Source of the DNA: Nitrospirota bacterium
GTDB taxonomy: Bacteria; Nitrospirota; JACRHJ01
Direction: 5' to 3'
Assembly (NCBI GenBank): GCA_963733375.1
Contig: CAVTDB010000026.1
Location: forward strand, 384,001-448,000
DNA: 64,000 bases
This document shows positions 34,334 to 63,296 of the stretch, piece by piece. Under the pieces are notes generated by a model. The model saw only the letters and a list, made by a program, of their open reading frames with translations, did no database searches and had not been told where the DNA came from. Each line of letters begins with the position of its first letter. Positions within the stretch are counted from its first letter, which is position 1. The translations under genes and the position numbers were made by a program.

Positions 34334-34379
34334 TTGCCCCGTATGCAATTATCTAATAATAATAAATGGGATGCCTGCC

Positions 34380-34781
34380 ATGAAAAACGAAAACGGAATT
34401 AAGTACAGGATGACGAAACAGAAGAGAGTTATCCTCGAAGTCCTTAAGAATACGAAATCTCATCCCACCGCGGATTGGGTTTACGACAAGGTCAAGAAAA
34501 AGATTCCGAACATCAGCCTCGGCACGGTATACAGAAATCTTAACATATTGAAAAACCAGGGCGAGATACTCGAACTGTCCTACGGCAAAGGCTTCAGCCG
34601 CTTCGACGGCAACTCTTCAAAGCATTATCATTTCACCTGCGAGCACTGCGGCAGGATATTAGACGTCGAAACACCGGAATTTCCCGAAATCGAGCAGGAA
34701 GTTACCAGGCACATGGGCGTCAAGGTGGCGCGGCACCGTCTTGAATTCTACGGTTCCTGCCCGGACTGCATTACCGACTGA
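34380..34781 (+). CDS. Fur-family transcriptional regulator, PerR-like
   Basis: RMTKQKR, HPTADWVY, SLGTVYRNL, RFD, HYHFTCEHCG, CPDC. Confidence 0.92.
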   Translation: MKNENGIKYRMTKQKRVILEVLKNTKSHPTADWVYDKVKKKIPNISLGTVYRNLNILKNQGEILELSYGKGFSRFDGNSSKHYHFTCEHCGRILDVETPEFPEIEQEVTRHMGVKVARHRLEFYGSCPDCITD

Positions 34782-34801
34782 CCCCAACCTTACGGCACCG
34801 A

Positions 34802-35290
34802 ATGACCCAGGCACTGAAGCTCGAAGAATCTTTTTTTAAAATAGCTGTCGAAGAGGCTGTCGCCCTGAGGCTTACTCTCGCGAACCGCGAAAGGCTGACA
34901 GGCATAGTAAAAGCGGCGGGGAAATACGATTTAAACATCGAATCGGAAGGGCGCATCATTGCGCTCATGAAAAAAGAAGTTTTTCAGGTCCTCCCCTCCA
35001 GAAACCTCATCGATGAATCTTTTTTCCAGCCTCAAGCAGAGGAAGAGCAGCTCCCCCATAAATCACGGGTGCAGGACGAATTCCTGGGCCGTTACGTAAA
35101 GGAGCGGACGCTCGCGCTTTTGCGTCTCGTCAACGGCGAGGAGATACGGGGCGTCATCGAAGGGTACGACGGCTTCACGATATCCATAAGAACGGGCAGG
35201 GGCCAGACCCTGATATACAAGCACGGGCTCTGCAACATCAGTCCCGGTTACAGACGTCGCCAGAGGGAAAATGAACACCAGCCCATTTGA
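34802..35290 (+). CDS. Tandem two-domain Hfq/Sm-like protein
   Basis: C-terminal half VQDEFL...LVNG..I.G.I.GYDGF...IYKHG aligns to Hfq; N-terminal half is a degenerate copy with the same spacing. Confidence 0.8.
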   Translation: MTQALKLEESFFKIAVEEAVALRLTLANRERLTGIVKAAGKYDLNIESEGRIIALMKKEVFQVLPSRNLIDESFFQPQAEEEQLPHKSRVQDEFLGRYVKERTLALLRLVNGEEIRGVIEGYDGFTISIRTGRGQTLIYKHGLCNISPGYRRRQRENEHQPI

Positions 35291-35680
35291 TGAAGCGTTG
35301 GAAGGGTTTTATTCCAAGGGTGCGGAAGCCGCTATTACCTTAAAAGACGGCTCCGAGCTTAAGGGCAAGGTAAAGAAATACGACGGCTATGTCATATTCC
35401 TGGACAACGGGGCCGAAATGATGGTCTATCGCCATTCGATCCTGAAGCTCTCCGAAGCGGCGCGGCCGGCGCAACGGGCGGAGAAGGCCCAGGCGCGCCC
35501 CAGGCCAGCACCCCGGACGGCTCCTGCGCGAATGCCCCAGAAGTACGCGCCCAAAAGAAAAGGCCGCCCAGGAAAGAGCCCTTTCAGGCCATTCCCCAGA
35601 AGGAACAGGAGCCAGGTGGTATATCCCGGATGGGAGAAGAACTGCTGAAGTGGCTGAAGAACCAAAAGGGCAATGAGTAA
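35271..35680 (+). CDS. Divergent Hfq/Sm-like protein with long tail (probable frameshift near 35555)
   Basis: ITLKDGSELKGKVKKYDGYVIFL...MVYRHSI aligns ungapped to Hfq Sm1/Sm2; alternate frame ends at TAA 35680 overlapping the lnt ATG. Confidence 0.78.
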
Positions 35681-37197
35681 CATCTCTTTGTTTTTCCTCC
35701 CCCTGCTCTCAGGAATACTCCTCGCGCTCTCTTTCCCAAAGGCGGACATATCCGTCCTTGCCTGGGTCGCGCTGATACCGCTTCTTTATTCCATCAGGGA
35801 CAAGTCGCCCAGACAATCTTTTAAAGAGGGTTTCATTGCCGGGATAGCCTTTTACGCGCTCTCCCTGAGATGGGTTTTAATCGTCATGCGGGATTATGGC
35901 GGCATAGGCTCCCTTCCGAGCTTTTTCCTGCTGCTCGCGCTCTCGGCGTACCTCGCCCTGTACATCGGCACGTTCGCCTGGCTTTATGTCAAGGCGCGGG
36001 AACATGCCGGGCCAGCCTCGGTACTGCTGGCCCCTGCATTCTGGGTGGCTCTGGAACTGCTCCGGAATTACCTTCTCTCCGGCTTTCCCTGGAACCTGCT
36101 GGGATATTCGCAGCACCAGAACCTGCCCCTGATACAAATTGCCGATATTACCGGAGTTTACGGCGTCTCCGCTTTAATCGTTATGACAAACGCGGCGATT
36201 ACCGAATTTATTGCGGTGATGTCTTACAGGGAATATGCGGACCGGAAGATAATCTGGCCTGTCACGGCCGTGGCGGTAATGGCCGCTCTCCGCCGTCTAC
36301 GGACATTACCGTCTGACGGACCTCCCGCGCCCGTATGGTTCCATGACAGTAACCGTCGTGCAGGGGGATATAGAGCAGTTCCATAAATGGGACCCGGCGT
36401 TCCAGATGCAGGTATTCGATGTTTATAAAAAATTAACAGCCGATGCCGTGGCACAGAAAAAGCCGGACCTCGTAATCTGGCCGGAGACCGCGACCCCTTT
36501 TTATTTTCAGGACAGGGTTCTGGTCGGGGAGCTTTCCGACTCGGTTAAAAAGACAAATACCTGGCTTCTGACCGGTAGCCCTTCCATCGAGGAGCGCGGC
36601 AGCGATTACGTCGAGTACAACAGTGCATATCTCATTAATCCCTCTGGAATACCGGCGGACCGCTACGACAAGATGCACCTGGTGCCGTTCGGGGAATACG
36701 TGCCGCTTAAGACCCTCCTGCCGTTTGTAAGCAAGATGGTCCACGGCATCGGCGATTTCGGCGCGGGCCGCGACTATACCGTCATGCGGATGAGCAAGGG
36801 CTCTTTCGGGACCGCGATATGTTTCGAGGTTATATTCCCGGAACTCGTGCGGCATTTCGTGTTGGGGGGCGCGAATTTCCTGACCAGCATAACCAACGAT
36901 GCATGGTTCGGAAATTCCGGAGCTCCGTATCAGCATTTCGATATGTCGGTGTTCCGGGCGGTGGAGAACCGGAGGTCTATGGTGCGCGCGGCCAATACGG
37001 GCATATCGGGTGTAATACTTCCGTCGGGCGAAGTGATTGCGAGGACGAGTCTTTTCAAGCGGGTACGCGATTACGGCGGAGGTGCCTTTGATGAAAGAAA
37101 AAACCTTCTACACCCTGTACGGGGACATATTCGCGTACTTATGTTCTGGAATTACGGCATGCTTTATTGCTATAATTTTATACAGGAGGTCCTTTAA
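35673..37197 (+). CDS. lnt: Apolipoprotein N-acyltransferase (frameshifts near 36290 and 37065)
   Basis: GFPWNLLGYSQ, WPET, YDK.HLVPFGEY, ICFE, TNDAWFG, RAVENRR, RAANTG. Confidence 0.95.
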
Positions 37198-37201
37198 AAA
37201 G

Positions 37202-38333
37202 ATGATAACAATGGAAGAAGTACAGCGGGAGCTCTCAAGCCTGCGGGATAGGGTTTCGGCCCTGAGGAGGCATCTTTGACATACCCGCCAAGGAGAAGCG
37301 CGTCCAGGAGATAAACGGCCTGATGGAGGTCCAGGAATTCTGGGAGAACGCGGAAGCCGCGCAGTCGCTCATGAAGGAGAAAACCGGCCTTCAGAGCGCC
37401 ATCTCGTCCTGGGACTCTTTAAGCAAGGCATCTGAAGAGCTTGACGTGATGCTGGAGCTTGCCTCGGAGGAGGGCGGCGAAGAGCTTACACTGGACATAG
37501 ACGCGGCGATGAAAAAACTCGCCCATGATATAGACTCGGCTGAGCTGGAGCTGATGCTATCCGGCGAGAACGACCGGCTTAACGCCATCCTTACCGTCCA
37601 CCCGGGCGCTGGCGGGACGGAATCCCAGGACTGGGCGGAGATGCTGCTCCGGATGTACCTTAGGTGGTGCGAGCGCAGGGGCTACAAGACCGAGATAATA
37701 GACTACCTCCCCGGCGAAGAGGCTGGCGTGAAAAGCGTCACGTTCGAGGTCACGGGCAAGAACGCATACGGATATTTAAAGGCGGAGGCCGGCGTCCACA
37801 GGCTGGTAAGGATATCGCCTTTCGACTCCAATAAAAGAAGGCACACGAGCTTCGCGTCCGTATTCGTCTATCCGGAGGTCGAGGACGACGTAAAGATAGA
37901 GATCGACGAGAAAGACTTGCGGATAGACACCTACCGGGCTTCCGGCGCGGGCGGCCAGCATGTCAACAAGACCTCCTCCGCCATACGGATTACGCACATA
38001 CCGACGAATATCGTCGTGCAGTGTCAGGACGAGCGCTCGCAGTTCAAAAACAAGGACAAGGCATTCAAGGTCCTGCGCTCCCGCCTCTACGACCTGGAGG
38101 TGAAGAAGAAGGAAGCGGAGCGCGACAAGATGAACAGCACGAAAAAGGACATCGCCTGGGGAAGCCAGATACGCTCCTACGTCTTCATGCCCTACCAGAT
38201 GGTTAAGGACCATCGGACCGGCCATGAGGTCGGGAATATAAGCGCGGTTATGGACGGCGACCTGGACGGCTTCATCGAGGCCTATCTCCTCGGCAAGCGC
38301 GCGCAGCCGGGCGCCGCGACAGACGACATCTAA
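37202..38333 (+). CDS. prfB: Peptide chain release factor 2 with programmed +1 frameshift
   Basis: SPF and GGQ motifs; short upstream ORF ends at CTT TGA C. Confidence 0.97.
37265..37280 (+). promoter_or_regulatory. RF2 programmed frameshift site
   Basis: AGGAGG CAT CTT TGA C: internal Shine-Dalgarno 3 nt before the canonical CTT-TGA shift site. Confidence 0.95.
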
Positions 38334-59770: not shown

Positions 59771-60169
59771 TTAATACCGGCCGGAGAAATAATCCTCAAG
59801 TATACGGGGGTGGTCGAAACAGATGGGAGAGGGCAGGCTGCCTTTGGCGAAAACGCCTATGCCCTTTGCGTCGTCGCCCGCTCTCGGCATGCCTTCCGCC
59901 CTGGCTATGAATACCGTCGATATGGTGTGGAAACGGGGGTCCCTTTTCGGGTCGGAATATGTATGGAACTGACGGATCAGCAAAACGTCTAAATCAGTCT
60001 CTTCCCTGGCCTCCCGGACGGCCGCGGCCTCGGCGCTCTCGCCGTAATCTATGAACCCGCCCGGTATCGCCCAGCCATGCGGCTCGTTCTTCCTCTCTAT
60101 CAGGACTATCCCCTCCGGCAGCTCGATTATGATGTCCACCGTGGGGAAGGGGTTCTTCCTTTCAGGCAT
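59771..60169 (-). CDS. Nudix hydrolase (ADP-ribose pyrophosphatase-like)
   Basis: [22 protein letters not shown] Nudix box; RDPR, AGDDA. Confidence 0.9.
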
Positions 60170-60495
60170 CAGCCTTCCACCCAGGGCTCCTCGGACTCCG
60201 CCGGTACCGGGGCCGCCGTCTCCGGCAGCGGGATTTCCCTGGCGTCCTTCGGCTCTTGCTCGGCATGGTTTACATGGCCAGCCAGTTCCACCGCGCGCTC
60301 CGGCACGATCGAATTGATGGCGTGCTTGTAGATAAGGTGCTGGCCGTCATGCTTAAGCAGAATGACGAAGTTATCGAAGCCTTTCACCAGGCCCTCGATC
60401 TTACCCCCTCCGGCGATATTCACGACTACCGGGATTTTCTCTTTTCGCACGTGGTTTAAAAACGCGTCCTGCAGGTTTATCTGGGACCTCGACAT
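60169..60495 (-). CDS. hfq: RNA chaperone Hfq
   Basis: LQDAFLN, GFDNF, IYKHAI; canonical miaA-hfq synteny. Confidence 0.95.
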
Positions 60496-60551: not shown

Positions 60552-60580
60552 AAACTATCGGAAATCCCCGGAAATATCAA
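60552..60580 (-). promoter_or_regulatory. Candidate hfq promoter in the 3' end of miaA
   Basis: TTGATA-17-TAGTTT. Confidence 0.5.
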
Positions 60581-61529
60581 GTGCTTTCTTCACCGAGTCC
60601 ATGGATGACGCTAAATTTTTATCAGAAATATCAACCCACTGCACGCCTTCCTGGCCGTTGAACCAGGTATATTGCCTCTTGGCGTAGTGCCTCGTGTCGC
60701 GTTTTATCAGCCGCGCCGCCTCATCCAAGCCCAGTTCGCCGTCCAGATGCGCCAGGAGCTGCTTGTAACCGAGGGCATGCATGGAGGGCATCTCACGGGT
60801 GCAGCCTTTATCCCGAAGCGTCTTCACCTCGTCAAGAAATCCCTCATCCAACATCTTGTCCACCCGCGCTTCTATACGCCTGTAAAGCTCCGGCCGGGGC
60901 ATTGTCAGGCCCGCGATTTTACAGTTGTACCTGCCGCCCCTGTCAGCACCCCTATCTGAGCGTCTATCTGAGCCTGTGGCTGAGCCTGTGGCGCCCCACT
61001 GAGACTGGCTCTCGCTGATTGGCTTGCCGGACTTTTGAAATACCTCCAGCGCGCGAATCGTCCTCCGTACGTCCGAAGGATGTATCTTTTCCGCCGCCTT
61101 CGGGTCGGCATTTTTCAACATACTATAAAGCGCGCCCGGCTCTTTGCGTTCAGCGTCCATCAGTTCTTCCCGCAGGGCGAAATCCGCAACCGGACCCTCA
61201 AACAGCCCCTCCGTGAGCGCCCGTATATACATTCCCGTCCCGCCCACGACCAGGGGGATTTTTCCCCGTCCAGTTATATCCTTTATCGCCTCATCCGCAA
61301 GCTGGACGTACCGCCCGGCTGAGAATTCCTCCTTCGGGTCCGCCACGTCTATCAGGTGGTGCGGCACCCGCGCCCGTTCATCCGGTGTCGGCTTCGCTGT
61401 GCCGATGTCCATGCCCCGATAGACCTGCATGGAGTCCGCGGAGATTATTTCCGCGCCTATCTCTTCGGCAATGGCTAACGATATTTCAGTCTTGCCGACT
61501 GCGGTCGGGCCGACGATAATATAAATCAT
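60555..61529 (-). CDS. miaA: tRNA dimethylallyltransferase
   Basis: GPTAVGKT, DSMQVY, GTAKP, VGGTG.Y, YAKRQ.TWF. Confidence 0.96.
   Translation of the reverse strand: MIYIIVGPTAVGKTEISLAIAEEIGAEIISADSMQVYRGMDIGTAKPTPDERARVPHHLIDVADPKEEFSAGRYVQLADEAIKDITGRGKIPLVVGGTGMYIRALTEGLFEGPVADFALREELMDAERKEPGALYSMLKNADPKAAEKIHPSDVRRTIRALEVFQKSGKPISESQSQWGATGSATGSDRRSDRGADRGGRYNCKIAGLTMPRPELYRRIEARVDKMLDEGFLDEVKTLRDKGCTREMPSMHALGYKQLLAHLDGELGLDEAARLIKRDTRHYAKRQYTWFNGQEGVQWVDISDKNLASSMDSVKKALDISGDFR
60933..60992 (-). repeat. Degenerate in-frame 12 bp tandem repeat within miaA
   Basis: GCCACAGGCTCA x2 then GATAGACGCTCA, GATAGGGGTGCT, GACAGGGGCGGC, encoding ATGS ATGS DRRS DRGA DRGG. Confidence 0.7.
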
Positions 61530-63296
61530 TTCCTCTTGAACATCTTCTCCAGCTCGTTCAGCCCGAACTTTATCACCGTCGGTCTGCCGTGTGCGCAGGT
61601 GTATGGCATCTCGCAGGAGAAGAGTTGTTCTATGAGCCGCTCCATTGCGTACGGGTGCAATTTTTTGCCAGCCTTGACGGCGCTCTTGCAGGCGACCGAT
61701 TTGCAAATTTTTTCCCGAAGCTCCTCCGCCTTCCCTTTCACGTCCGCGCTTTCCAGCTCGGATACCAGCCCCAGCACCACTTCCTTTATGTCCGCCTTCT
61801 CAAGGAACAGCGGCTTTGAGCGGATGAGGAAACTCCCGCCGCCGAAAGGCTCCGCATCTATGCCCAGTTCCTTAAGCTCCGGCAGGACGGCCTCAAGGAG
61901 CGCCGCCTCCTTCGCGGTAAGCTCTATGCGCTCCGGGACCAGTAACCCTTGCGAGGATTCCCCGTGCTTGCCGAACCGGGCCTTCACCTTTTCATACTGC
62001 ACGCGCTCGTGCGCCGCGTGCTGGTCGATTAAGATAAAGCCGTCTTCTCTCCTGGCAATGATGTAGGAATCCATAACCTGCATGGGGAACTCCCGGCTGA
62101 ATTCCCGTTCCGGTTCCGGATGTACATTCCTCTCCGTGTGGAGCGGAATCCTCTCCTGGCGGTGCTCATACGTACTCCCCTCTCCCGGCGCTCCGCGCCA
62201 CCCTCTCCCACAGGTGGAGAGGGAAAGCGGGAGGGGATATTATACGGCGGGGCGAATGGGGCAGGGGCCTCGCGCACTGTGCCGGCATCCATGAAGGCAT
62301 CGGCGCCGGGGGCGCACTCGGAGCTTTTCAGCGCACAGATAACAGCCTCTTTTATAGTCCTCTGCACCCCTTGCGCATCCGCGAAACGGACCTCCCTCTT
62401 GGCCGGATGCACGTTCACGTCCACCTGAGAGGGTTCTATATCTATGAACAGGATTGATGCCGGGTGCCGCTCCTTCATCAGCAGCGACTCGTATGCATCG
62501 TAAAGGGCGCGGGTTATCACACGGTCCTTCACGGGCCGGTGGTTCACGAAGGTCTCCTGCCTTGAGCGGTCGGAGAAGGTGCTTCCCGGCGCGGAGACGA
62601 AACCATGAACACGGCATGCTCCGCCGCCGTTATTTATCTCCGAGAGTCCCTTCGCGAAGTCTCTTCCGTAAACCTGGGCCACCCGCTCCCTGAGCTCCCG
62701 GACCGGCGGGCAATCGAACAATTCCTTGCCGTCACTTGTCAGCCTGAAATGGACCATCGGGTGCGCAAGCGCCAGCCTCTCAACCGTCGCCGCGATATGC
62801 GACAGCTCGGTCTCCCGGCTCTTTAAGAACTTAAGCCTCGCCGGGGTATTGAAGAATAAGTCGCGCACCTCCGCCGTGGTCCCCCTGGCCGCGCCGACCT
62901 CCTTCACGCCCTGGATTTTTCCGCCTTCGATTAGATCAATGAGCCGTGGCCCTCACCCGTGGAGGTGGTGAGCCTGAACCGTGAAACCGATGCGATGGAC
63001 GGGAGCGCCTCGCCCCGAAAGCCCATGGTGGAGATTGACAAGAGACCTTCGTCGGAACTCAGCTTGCTGGTGGCATGGCGTTCGAATGCCAGGAGTGCGT
63101 CGTCCGGGGACATCCCCGAGCCGTCGTCGATTATCTTTATTACCTTGGTCCCGCCGCCCCCCGTCTCGATGAATATCCGGGATGCGCCCGAATCGAGGGA
63201 GTTTTCGACCAGTTCCTTCACCACCGACGCCGGACGCTCCACCACTTCTCCGGCGGCGATTTTATTGGCGATATTTTCAGGAAGGATTTTAATCAT
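61526..63296 (-). CDS. mutL: DNA mismatch repair endonuclease MutL (frameshifts near 62940 and 62100-62170)
   Basis: [42 protein letters not shown]. Confidence 0.96.
62176..62237. repeat. REP-like multi-hairpin element inside the mutL linker
   Basis: GGCGC-tcc-GCGCC and CCCTCTCC-7 nt-GGAGAGGG hairpins, closed by outer TCCCCTC(TC)CCG / CGGGAGGGGA arms. Confidence 0.72.

Follow-up and report, generated by a model that had tools for sequence, protein, structure and literature searches.

Two overlapping genes of a Nitrospirota bacterium encode three different Hfq-type Sm domains, and their two protein products appear to form an obligate, co-inherited, Hfq-derived pair that accompanies the normal Hfq in a subset of the Nitrospirota. 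The genes lie in a stretch of 64,000 nucleotides (nt; assembly GCA_963733375.1, contig CAVTDB010000026.1, positions 384,001–448,000), which we refer to as the window and from whose first letter all coordinates are counted. In particular, hfqAB (34802–35290, + strand; Pfam Hfq, E = 1.2e-17) encodes a protein of 162 amino acids (aa), AB, that comprises a diverged Hfq/Sm domain with an altered pocket, recognized from profile and model matches (domain A; residues 5–68; 34814–35005, + strand), and a canonical-type Hfq domain (domain B; residues 88–151; 35063–35254, + strand). The second gene, hfqC (35271–35648, + strand), which shares 20 nt with hfqAB, encodes as it stands in the window a 125-aa protein, C, with an Sm core (residues 3–63) and a basic, proline-rich tail that is out of frame from about position 35540. 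The arrangement that we consider most likely is one in which AB and C assemble into a single mixed ring, (AB·C)2, that acts as an RNA chaperone; we assign this reading, in which we infer the contact between the two proteins, the ring, its order, its RNA binding and what the helix that ends C does, a probability of about 45%.

An earlier reading of the window, made without database searches (here called the sequence-only reading), had counted three distinct Hfq-type Sm domains in two overlapping ORFs (open reading frames) and a fourth in a normal hfq gene beside miaA. The ORF listing, Pfam, profiles and models together confirm the three domains, and the normal gene encodes a 108-aa Hfq (60169–60495, − strand; Pfam Hfq, 4.1e-25, 87.6 bits) directly downstream of miaA (60555–61706; IPPT, 1.9e-91) and downstream of mutL. 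The count of four is correct, since a scan of the whole genome for Hfq returned only the places of A, B and C together with one strong canonical Hfq. The observation on which this work is founded is thus confirmed as real and as more than chance.

Domain B has the features of a canonical Hfq domain. Scanned alone against the Pfam Hfq model, residues 90–148 align with positions 1–59 of 64 (1e-14, 54.3 bits) without a gap, in line with the near gap-free alignment to Hfq originally claimed for it, and AB as a whole scores 63.8 bits against this model (cut-off 27) and 66.0 bits against TIGR02383 (cut-off 61.7). The model of residues 88–148 superimposes on Staphylococcus aureus Hfq with a Z score of 8.5 and a root-mean-square deviation (rmsd) of 1.0 Å. 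For E. coli Hfq, passages of PMC4174439 give the positions of the three RNA surfaces and assign Q8, F39, F42, Y55 and K56 to the proximal pocket. We compared pocket residues across 58 Sm domains (20 canonical, 11 B, 16 C and 11 A), in which B has Gln8, an aromatic residue (Phe or Tyr) at position 42 and Tyr-Lys-His in 11 of 11 sequences each; correspondingly, Q91, Y139, K140 and H141 of domain B are invariant in 34 sequences. In this comparison we take His57 to be a pocket residue of E. coli Hfq and Lys47 to be one of its RNA-surface positions. The residues retained mark B as a canonical-type Hfq domain with a full pocket, predicted to bind uridine.

Domain A is much more diverged. On its own it aligns with positions 4–62 of 64 in the Pfam Hfq model at 13.2 bits (E = 0.068), so that of the three Pfam scans proposed in the sequence-only reading, those of domain B and of the ORF at 35271 exceed the cut-off and that of A alone does not. 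However, when a profile of 13 domain A sequences was compared with all PDB sequences, Aquifex aeolicus Hfq (5szd) was the top match (E = 7.2e-7; gap-free over 64 positions) and the ten best rows were all Hfq, and hhalign matched domain A to canonical Nitrospirota Hfq with a probability of 95.5% (E = 1.4e-8, 61 columns). These sequence-only tests agree with the fold predicted by AlphaFold2. Specifically, the model of AB, computed from a 34-sequence alignment (mean predicted local distance difference test score (pLDDT) 85.7; predicted template modelling score (pTM) 0.79), consists of two modules, each of a helix and five strands, with a low-confidence linker between them; residues 6–75 superimpose on Bacillus subtilis Hfq (3hsb_E) with a Z score of 9.4 and an rmsd of 0.9 Å over 68/68 residues, and the Foldseek rows shown for the AB model are Hfq chains throughout. 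Profile matches and model together support the view that domain A has an Hfq/Sm fold that is devoid of the canonical pocket residues.

The pocket of domain A seems to have been altered in a conserved way rather than randomly eroded, because its pocket positions are conserved across A sequences. In the 58-domain alignment, Glu occupies the Gln8 position and Gly the Asp40 position in 11/11 sequences, Arg or Lys is found at 41 and Tyr or His at 42 (10/11), and Lys56 is kept in 11/11; Tyr55 is replaced by Pro, Leu or Met, and position 57, where His is not conserved, holds Lys, Gln or His. The domain thus has a residue set of its own, in which Glu stands where Hfq has Gln, G-[RK]-[YH]-[ED] substitutes for D-N-F-V, and the Lys is retained. 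E8, G34, G40 and K57 are invariant in an alignment of 13 sequences (A4); the AB protein of genome G041 has Ser at the otherwise invariant G40 position. We took the invariant columns of AB from this alignment and from alignment A2, because counts made on pattern-selected sequences are partly circular (the pattern itself demanded G34, G40, K57, Q91, L95, D123, T126 and K140, and left out 3 of 55 loci: L062, L081 and L087). The substitutions in A that had been pointed out previously are present in the sequence. Of the accompanying description of A as inactive, the loss of the canonical pocket residues stands; inactivity as such fits poorly with a conserved residue set and a median ratio of nonsynonymous to synonymous substitution rates (dN/dS) of 0.21.

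The identification of C as an Hfq paralogue was borne out as well: residues 7–60 match positions 3–57 of the Pfam Hfq model (3.8e-9, 36.5 bits; cut-off 27), and the score against TIGR02383 is 34.0 bits, below the cut-off of 61.7. Both A and C, whose membership of the Sm fold the sequence-only reading had made decisive, are modelled by AlphaFold2 as a helix followed by five strands, and for A the profile matches point the same way. At position 8, C has a hydrophobic residue and in 16/16 sequences no Gln; it has Tyr or His at 42, Tyr or Phe at 55, Arg at 56 (16/16) and His at 57 (16/16), and is therefore predicted to keep the aromatic-Y-R-H half of the uridine pocket, with a hydrophobic residue replacing the Gln. 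The C proteins of relatives are 127–148 aa long, with a tail of 64–84 residues that is rich in Pro, Arg and Lys (12–20 Lys and Arg against 5–11 Asp and Glu) and a conserved end that carries the motif L-K-W in 52 of 54 sequences, the exceptions being the copy in the window and one sequence cut by a contig end. In the AlphaFold2 model of the orthologue from genome G001, an Sm core (pLDDT ~87) is followed by a disordered tail and a helix at residues 120–133 (pLDDT ~76). This terminal helix is amphipathic, with a hydrophobic moment of 0.49–0.69 and a net charge of 0 to +1. We considered it as a membrane anchor and found it unconvincing, given that charge and given that no more than 7 of 14 sequences exceeded 95% of their shuffled versions. 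In genome G041, of family f14, the C orthologue (L081, 2247–2972, − strand) is 241 aa long, and its Sm domain is interrupted by an insertion of ~60 residues that separates the FD.Y motif from YRH; the W-containing helix motif is still found at the end of the protein.

The helix was missed in the sequence-only reading because the copy of hfqC in the window is frameshifted. A net 1-nt deletion near 35539–35549 (+ strand), specific to the source assembly, throws the final ~30 residues of the ORF out of frame, and the extra base is present in three loci of close relatives (L008, L018 and L019) and in the single public contig that covers the site (run X3). Read from the sequence in the frame of the relatives and aligned to them, the natural C-terminus, with its conserved helix and LKW motif, lies at 35630–35680 (+ strand), and its stop codon overlaps the start of the next gene, lnt.

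The extra Hfq arrangement, whose conservation in relatives the sequence-only reading had proposed to examine, is indeed conserved. Full-length relatives of AB share 53–95% identity with it in the window's own family (f1) and 28–38% in three other Nitrospirota families. The domain A profile gave 78 matches at E ≤ 1e-5 in 401 sampled Nitrospirota genomes; strong matches (E ≤ 1.3e-12) were found in 73 genomes from five families (not counting the window's genome, f1, 8/11; f5, 59/64; f6, 3/3; f7, 1/1; f14, 1/1), and five weak matches near 1e-6 were to frames of 82–112 aa, the size of an ordinary Hfq. There was no match to this profile in families f9 (0/76), f17 (0/40), f11 (0/35) or f10 (0/28), nor in two f1 genomes, G005 (91% complete) and G007 (65%); in a third, G009, the A gene is cut by the contig start. 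Strong matches to the C profile (E ≤ 5e-24) were found in 72 of the same 401 genomes, and 71 of the 73 A-positive genomes were among them. The two exceptions are G208, in which an adjacent C is split, and G041, with the divergent 241-aa C described above, as read from its ORF. Genomes that carry AB and C keep their canonical Hfq, and AB-C is therefore an addition rather than a replacement. At E ≤ 1e-8 the C profile had no match in f9 (0/76), f17 (0/40), f10 (0/28) or f16 (0/14); by this measure, which employs the C profile as its probe and not the Pfam model, these lineages may lack Hfq altogether.

When the 58 domains are arranged in a tree, each of A, C and B falls into a single group, with support values of 100/98, 99/100 and 85/94, respectively; the tree rests on 64 columns and carries a long-branch warning. 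The same family groupings recur within A, B and C, and the canonical sequences sit on short branches. Between families, canonical Hfq sequences share 61% identity, B domains 34%, C 29% and A 24%. The median pairwise dN/dS is 0.21 for A, 0.57 for the AB linker and 0.11 for B, and 0.23 for the core of C, 0.46 for its tail and 0.08 for its terminal helix; the pairs compared lack mutual independence, and linker and tail could be aligned only with uncertainty. The AB and C frames are open in all loci read, and their invariant residues are shared across families. These values indicate that A, B and C are all under purifying selection and, taken together with the tree, the co-occurrence and the identities, point to one old triplication followed by co-inheritance.

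Outside this sample, a profile of AB searched against 1.84 billion representative sequences found 3354 Hfq-family proteins, of which ~11 match both halves in one stretch. Five divergent proteins of this library (P0041, P0044, P0032, P0035 and P0122) combine an A-like N-terminal half with a canonical C-terminal one, and P0035 resembles the AB protein of G041; scans of metagenomes with P0041 and P0032 found no loci. An ESM Atlas cluster of 139-aa Hfq-domain proteins, commonest in the Deferribacterota, scores 0.95 for AB and 0.92 for P0041. There was no match in PADLOC, which we consulted for a possible origin in defence, and domain B had one weak match (1.4e-4) to a PHROG of unknown function.

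The order AB-C-lnt was found in 10/10 loci from four families, and in a further 40 loci (39 from f5 and one from f14) C follows AB in 40/40 and lnt follows C in 39/40, the sole locus without lnt being cut by a contig end. In 28 of 38 alignable loci a distance of 1 nt separates the stop codon of C from the lnt ATG downstream of it, and in f1 the two overlap. Next after lnt comes prfB in 7 of the 10 loci from four families; among the further 40, the stretch retrieved includes it in 10. In contrast, the genes upstream of AB vary by family and include GH57 with DUF4912, PmbA/TldD, VTT/DedA, a class-A penicillin-binding protein and radical SAM. The penicillin-binding protein lies directly upstream of AB on the same strand in f6 (L023–L025), as does DedA/VTT in f7 (L022), so that in these two families the module is flanked by envelope genes on both sides. 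The conserved partner gene of AB-C is lnt, not the PerR-like gene that precedes AB in the window. Of the order fur-hfqAB-hfqC-lnt that the sequence-only reading had suggested looking for in relatives, the last three members are kept and the fur member is confined to f1.

On the basis of these findings we propose the following scheme. One ancient triplication would have produced three Sm domains that diverged together. Two AB and two C chains would close a six-membered Sm ring in the order A-B-C-A-B-C, presenting RNA pockets of three non-equivalent kinds, and from this ring would extend two long basic C tails, each with a conserved amphipathic helix that might dock on a partner or on the ring itself. 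The ring would act as a specialized RNA-binding chaperone or regulator, and AB and C would be expressed on the same transcript as lnt, with the translation of AB, C and lnt coupled. Domain identity, the modelled folds, conservation, co-occurrence, gene order and purifying selection are the steps that the sequences and models described above show. The pTM of 0.79 obtained for AB despite its disordered linker would be explained by a confident side-by-side placement of A and B, and three Sm domains in a 1:1:1 ratio would fit a hexamer as two sets, in a geometry that passages of PMC3710371 describe for Lsm(6-5-7)2 and Sm(F-E-G)2. With slightly less conviction, and still tentatively, we entertain a fuller version of the (AB·C)2 ring, in which the heteromer (A-B·C)2 is strictly ordered, has three types of pocket and a docking helix, would represent the first bacterial counterpart of the eukaryotic Sm/Lsm heteromers, having arisen independently from Hfq, and would use the conserved Glu/Gly-Arg-Tyr-Glu/Lys set of domain A as a re-specified and not a dead ligand site.

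Several observations weigh against the mixed ring or against its function as a chaperone. An (AB)3 assembly would by itself suffice for a closed ring of six domains, and homohexamers could arise from C on its own, as they do from ordinary Hfq; among relatives of 285–2000 aa there is no A-B-C fusion, which is weak evidence. The fold evidence consists of AlphaFold2 models that may lean on solved Hfq structures. The rim arginine (position 16) is absent from A and C and is found in only 1/11 B domains, and the position of Lys47 is acidic in most A and C; Hfq-like annealing activity is thus not assured, because the rim arginines have been lost from A and C and mostly from B. No RNA run was found to contain the locus, and there are no Rfam matches in the window.

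Some of these points would suit separate rings, namely an (AB)3 pseudo-hexamer in which altered and canonical pockets alternate, and a C6 homohexamer. Their subunits would not mix, but both would serve one pathway, perhaps by handling different classes of RNA or by stacking on a single RNA. Hfq normally forms homohexamers; tandem proteins whose halves are both intact occur frequently (~20 of the best 150 matches to the AB profile) and presumably close rings as trimers; C possesses a full Sm core; and the fusion just mentioned was not found. However, the co-occurrence, adjacency and translational coupling of AB and C exceed what a loose functional link usually entails, and a C6 ring would have six incomplete pockets because C is without Gln in 16/16 sequences; we regard separate rings as unlikely, if a serious competitor. 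A more distant alternative is that AB and C form an Sm-fold adaptor that works through protein contacts, possibly at the membrane, in lipoprotein or envelope biogenesis, and is not primarily an RNA chaperone. The analogy here is a cyanobacterial Hfq-like protein that is without an RNA pocket and works through a protein partner. Indeed, lnt is the only conserved neighbour and is translationally coupled to C, AB is directly preceded on its own strand by a gene for a class-A penicillin-binding protein (f6) or DedA/VTT (f7), selective constraint on C is strongest in a short amphipathic helix, and A and C are without basic rim residues. Yet B keeps all canonical pocket residues invariantly, the tail of C is strongly basic, as expected for binding to nucleic acid, the helix has a net charge (0 to +1) that is weak for a membrane anchor, and gene order alone is no proof of shared function, all of which makes an adaptor improbable.

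The sequence-only reading had called the locus Fur/PerR-led and had tied it to metal or peroxide regulation, and a chaperone for peroxide or metal stress under PerR/Fur control is accordingly another alternative. The gene in question encodes a 133-aa PerR-like regulator of the Fur family (34380–34781, + strand; Pfam FUR, 2.5e-33) and ends 20 nt before AB. A σ70-like promoter candidate, which is a consensus match only (34334–34363, + strand; 9/12 matches in a consensus scan), precedes it, and from there to prfB there is no terminator-like site on the + strand. Other f1 genomes that we read have the same neighbour, so that the description holds for the window's family, in three genomes of which the gap is 20, 94 and 532 nt. 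It does not hold for f5, f6 and f7, in which the regulator adjoins AB in 0/8 loci. No inverted repeat or operator palindrome was found at the promoter of the PerR-like gene, and its upstream region has no conserved box beyond the closest genera; the regulator's best NCBIfam matches, with 117 and 115 bits, are to PerR models whose cut-offs are 200 and 180, and it falls below every PerR cut-off. In addition, coupling with lnt points to expression that is steady and not confined to stress. A link to metal or peroxide control, derived from an adjacency peculiar to f1, is not supported, and we think it quite improbable that this is what the module is for. There is, finally, the prospect that the extra domains are decaying duplicates without function. 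A does fall below the Pfam cut-off of 27 bits on its own, and A, B and C evolve much faster than canonical Hfq; but the frames are open in all loci read, invariant residues are shared across families, the folded parts have dN/dS values of 0.08–0.23, and the module is retained in 59 of 64 sampled f5 genomes. Decay is contradicted by these conservation data to the point of being excluded, and we give it next to no weight.

The genes around the module show further lesions in the source assembly, which is 81% complete with 5% contamination. In the window, lnt (apolipoprotein N-acyltransferase; 35673–37197, + strand; LNT_N, 9.7e-46, and CN_hydrolase, 1e-31, on two ORFs) is split by single-base insertions near 36287, 37061 (37061–37064) and 37193; the gene is intact, at 506–560 aa, in 9 of 10 fetched relatives and is split also in G004 (L028). 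None of the public contigs of runs X1–X3 that cover the C-tail and lnt sites carries the window's indels. We take these indels to be consensus errors or strain-specific lesions, and the form found in the relatives to be the natural one. Likewise, mutL is split into two overlapping ORFs (61526–62907). Two ORFs are listed for prfB (release factor 2; 37202–38333, + strand) for a different reason, because it contains a classical programmed +1 frameshift site: an AGGAGG motif is followed by CTT TGA C at 37274–37280, where translation ends with Leu and then TGA, and the downstream frame is 59–82% identical to prfB of relatives. At 36616–36743 public contigs pile up to a summed depth of 39–100, against ~5 elsewhere, and many of their ends are loose. 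The pile-up reflects conservation within the carbon-nitrogen hydrolase domain of lnt, in a stretch that contigs of other organisms share, and is not a feature of the genome.

A mixed Hfq ring, if it exists, would be unusual for bacteria, and a true heteromer would be of clear interest to specialists in Hfq and Sm proteins. AB and C, present beside an ordinary Hfq, would constitute a natural system in which to ask how a homomeric ring turns heteromeric and how the non-equivalence of pockets affects the selection of RNA. Family f5, in which 59 of 64 genomes have the module, is the largest Nitrospirota family in our sample, and if it includes cultured nitrifiers the AB and C proteins could be studied directly. 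Even if the rings are separate, domain A, altered yet conserved, and the terminal helix of C, with its strong constraint, provide new leads in the Hfq family.

Hfq is the textbook homohexameric Sm protein of bacteria, and rings that combine different Sm paralogues in a fixed order are considered a trait of eukaryotes. A full-text literature search found no description of a tandem Hfq that joins a degenerate to a canonical domain and has a third paralogue, and no study of Hfq in the Nitrospirota (in the texts that name both Hfq and Nitrospira, neither is in the title or abstract). What we did not find in the literature is the combination, that is, an altered domain fused to a canonical one and an obligate third paralogue with a terminal helix, all beside a normal Hfq. 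Like canonical Hfq (PF17209, TIGR02383), A, B and C are all Hfq-type Sm folds of a helix and five strands, as far as the models tell. They differ from it in being three non-identical domains in two chains, encoded apart from miaA-hfq. In A, Gln8 is replaced by Glu, Asp40 by Gly and Y-K-H by [PLM]-K-[KQH]; in C, a hydrophobic residue takes the place of Gln8 and Arg that of Lys56; and both A and C are without the rim arginines.

Tandem Hfq as such is already known, because NCBIfam models set the classic tandems apart and such proteins, matched twice by the B half, make up ~20 of the best 150 matches to the AB profile. One is said to have been described in Novosphingobium aromaticivorans by Sun et al. 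in 2002, and we know of no report of an obligate third paralogue for any classic tandem. AB resembles these proteins (NF010691/PRK14091) in carrying two Hfq domains with a short linker in one chain of 140–200 aa. In the classic tandems (n = 10), however, both halves match strongly, with two TIGR02383 matches (120–167 bits) and NF010691 scores of 97–213 bits, whereas A-type proteins match TIGR02383 once, in the second half only (6/6), and score 45–64 bits against NF010691. AB of the window reaches 36.1 bits against NF010691 (cut-off 270), and its first half gives only a second, sub-threshold stretch. Tandems with two intact YKH halves occur in the library (e.g., P0036–P0043, P0046, P0049 and P0051), as does a 482-aa protein, P0128, with two Hfq-like domains within a larger architecture.

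The Hfq-like proteins of cyanobacteria (Synechocystis 3hfo) share with AB an Sm fold and a diverged pocket, and 3hfo_B superimposes on the model of domain B with a Z score of 8.7, but the match to NF047718 is weak (E = 0.17) and the cyanobacterial proteins are single-domain homo-oligomers. To our knowledge, the extra Hfq paralogues of Burkholderia and Bacillus anthracis have not been found to form ordered heteromers. What the Nitrospirota genomes have in common with these organisms is more than one Hfq-family gene, namely Hfq2 in Burkholderia and Hfq1–3 in B. anthracis (passages of PMC6200039; see also PMC3474761 and PMC5348863); there, the paralogues have one domain each and their genes lie at separate loci or on a plasmid, whereas here a fused pair and its partner are encoded in a coupled operon. 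The closest parallel to the proposed ring lies in the eukaryotic Lsm(6-5-7)2 and Sm(F-E-G)2, which the relevant passages of PMC3710371 present as hexamers made from two sets of three Sm paralogues. In both cases, paralogous Sm domains would have arisen by duplication and three units taken twice could close a hexamer, and the trait of distinct, co-expressed paralogues has its equivalent here in three groups of the domain tree and in genes that overlap or lie close together in 50/50 loci. The eukaryotic rings are of the Lsm type and are built from separate chains; their putative bacterial counterpart would be of the Hfq type, with two of its three units fused.

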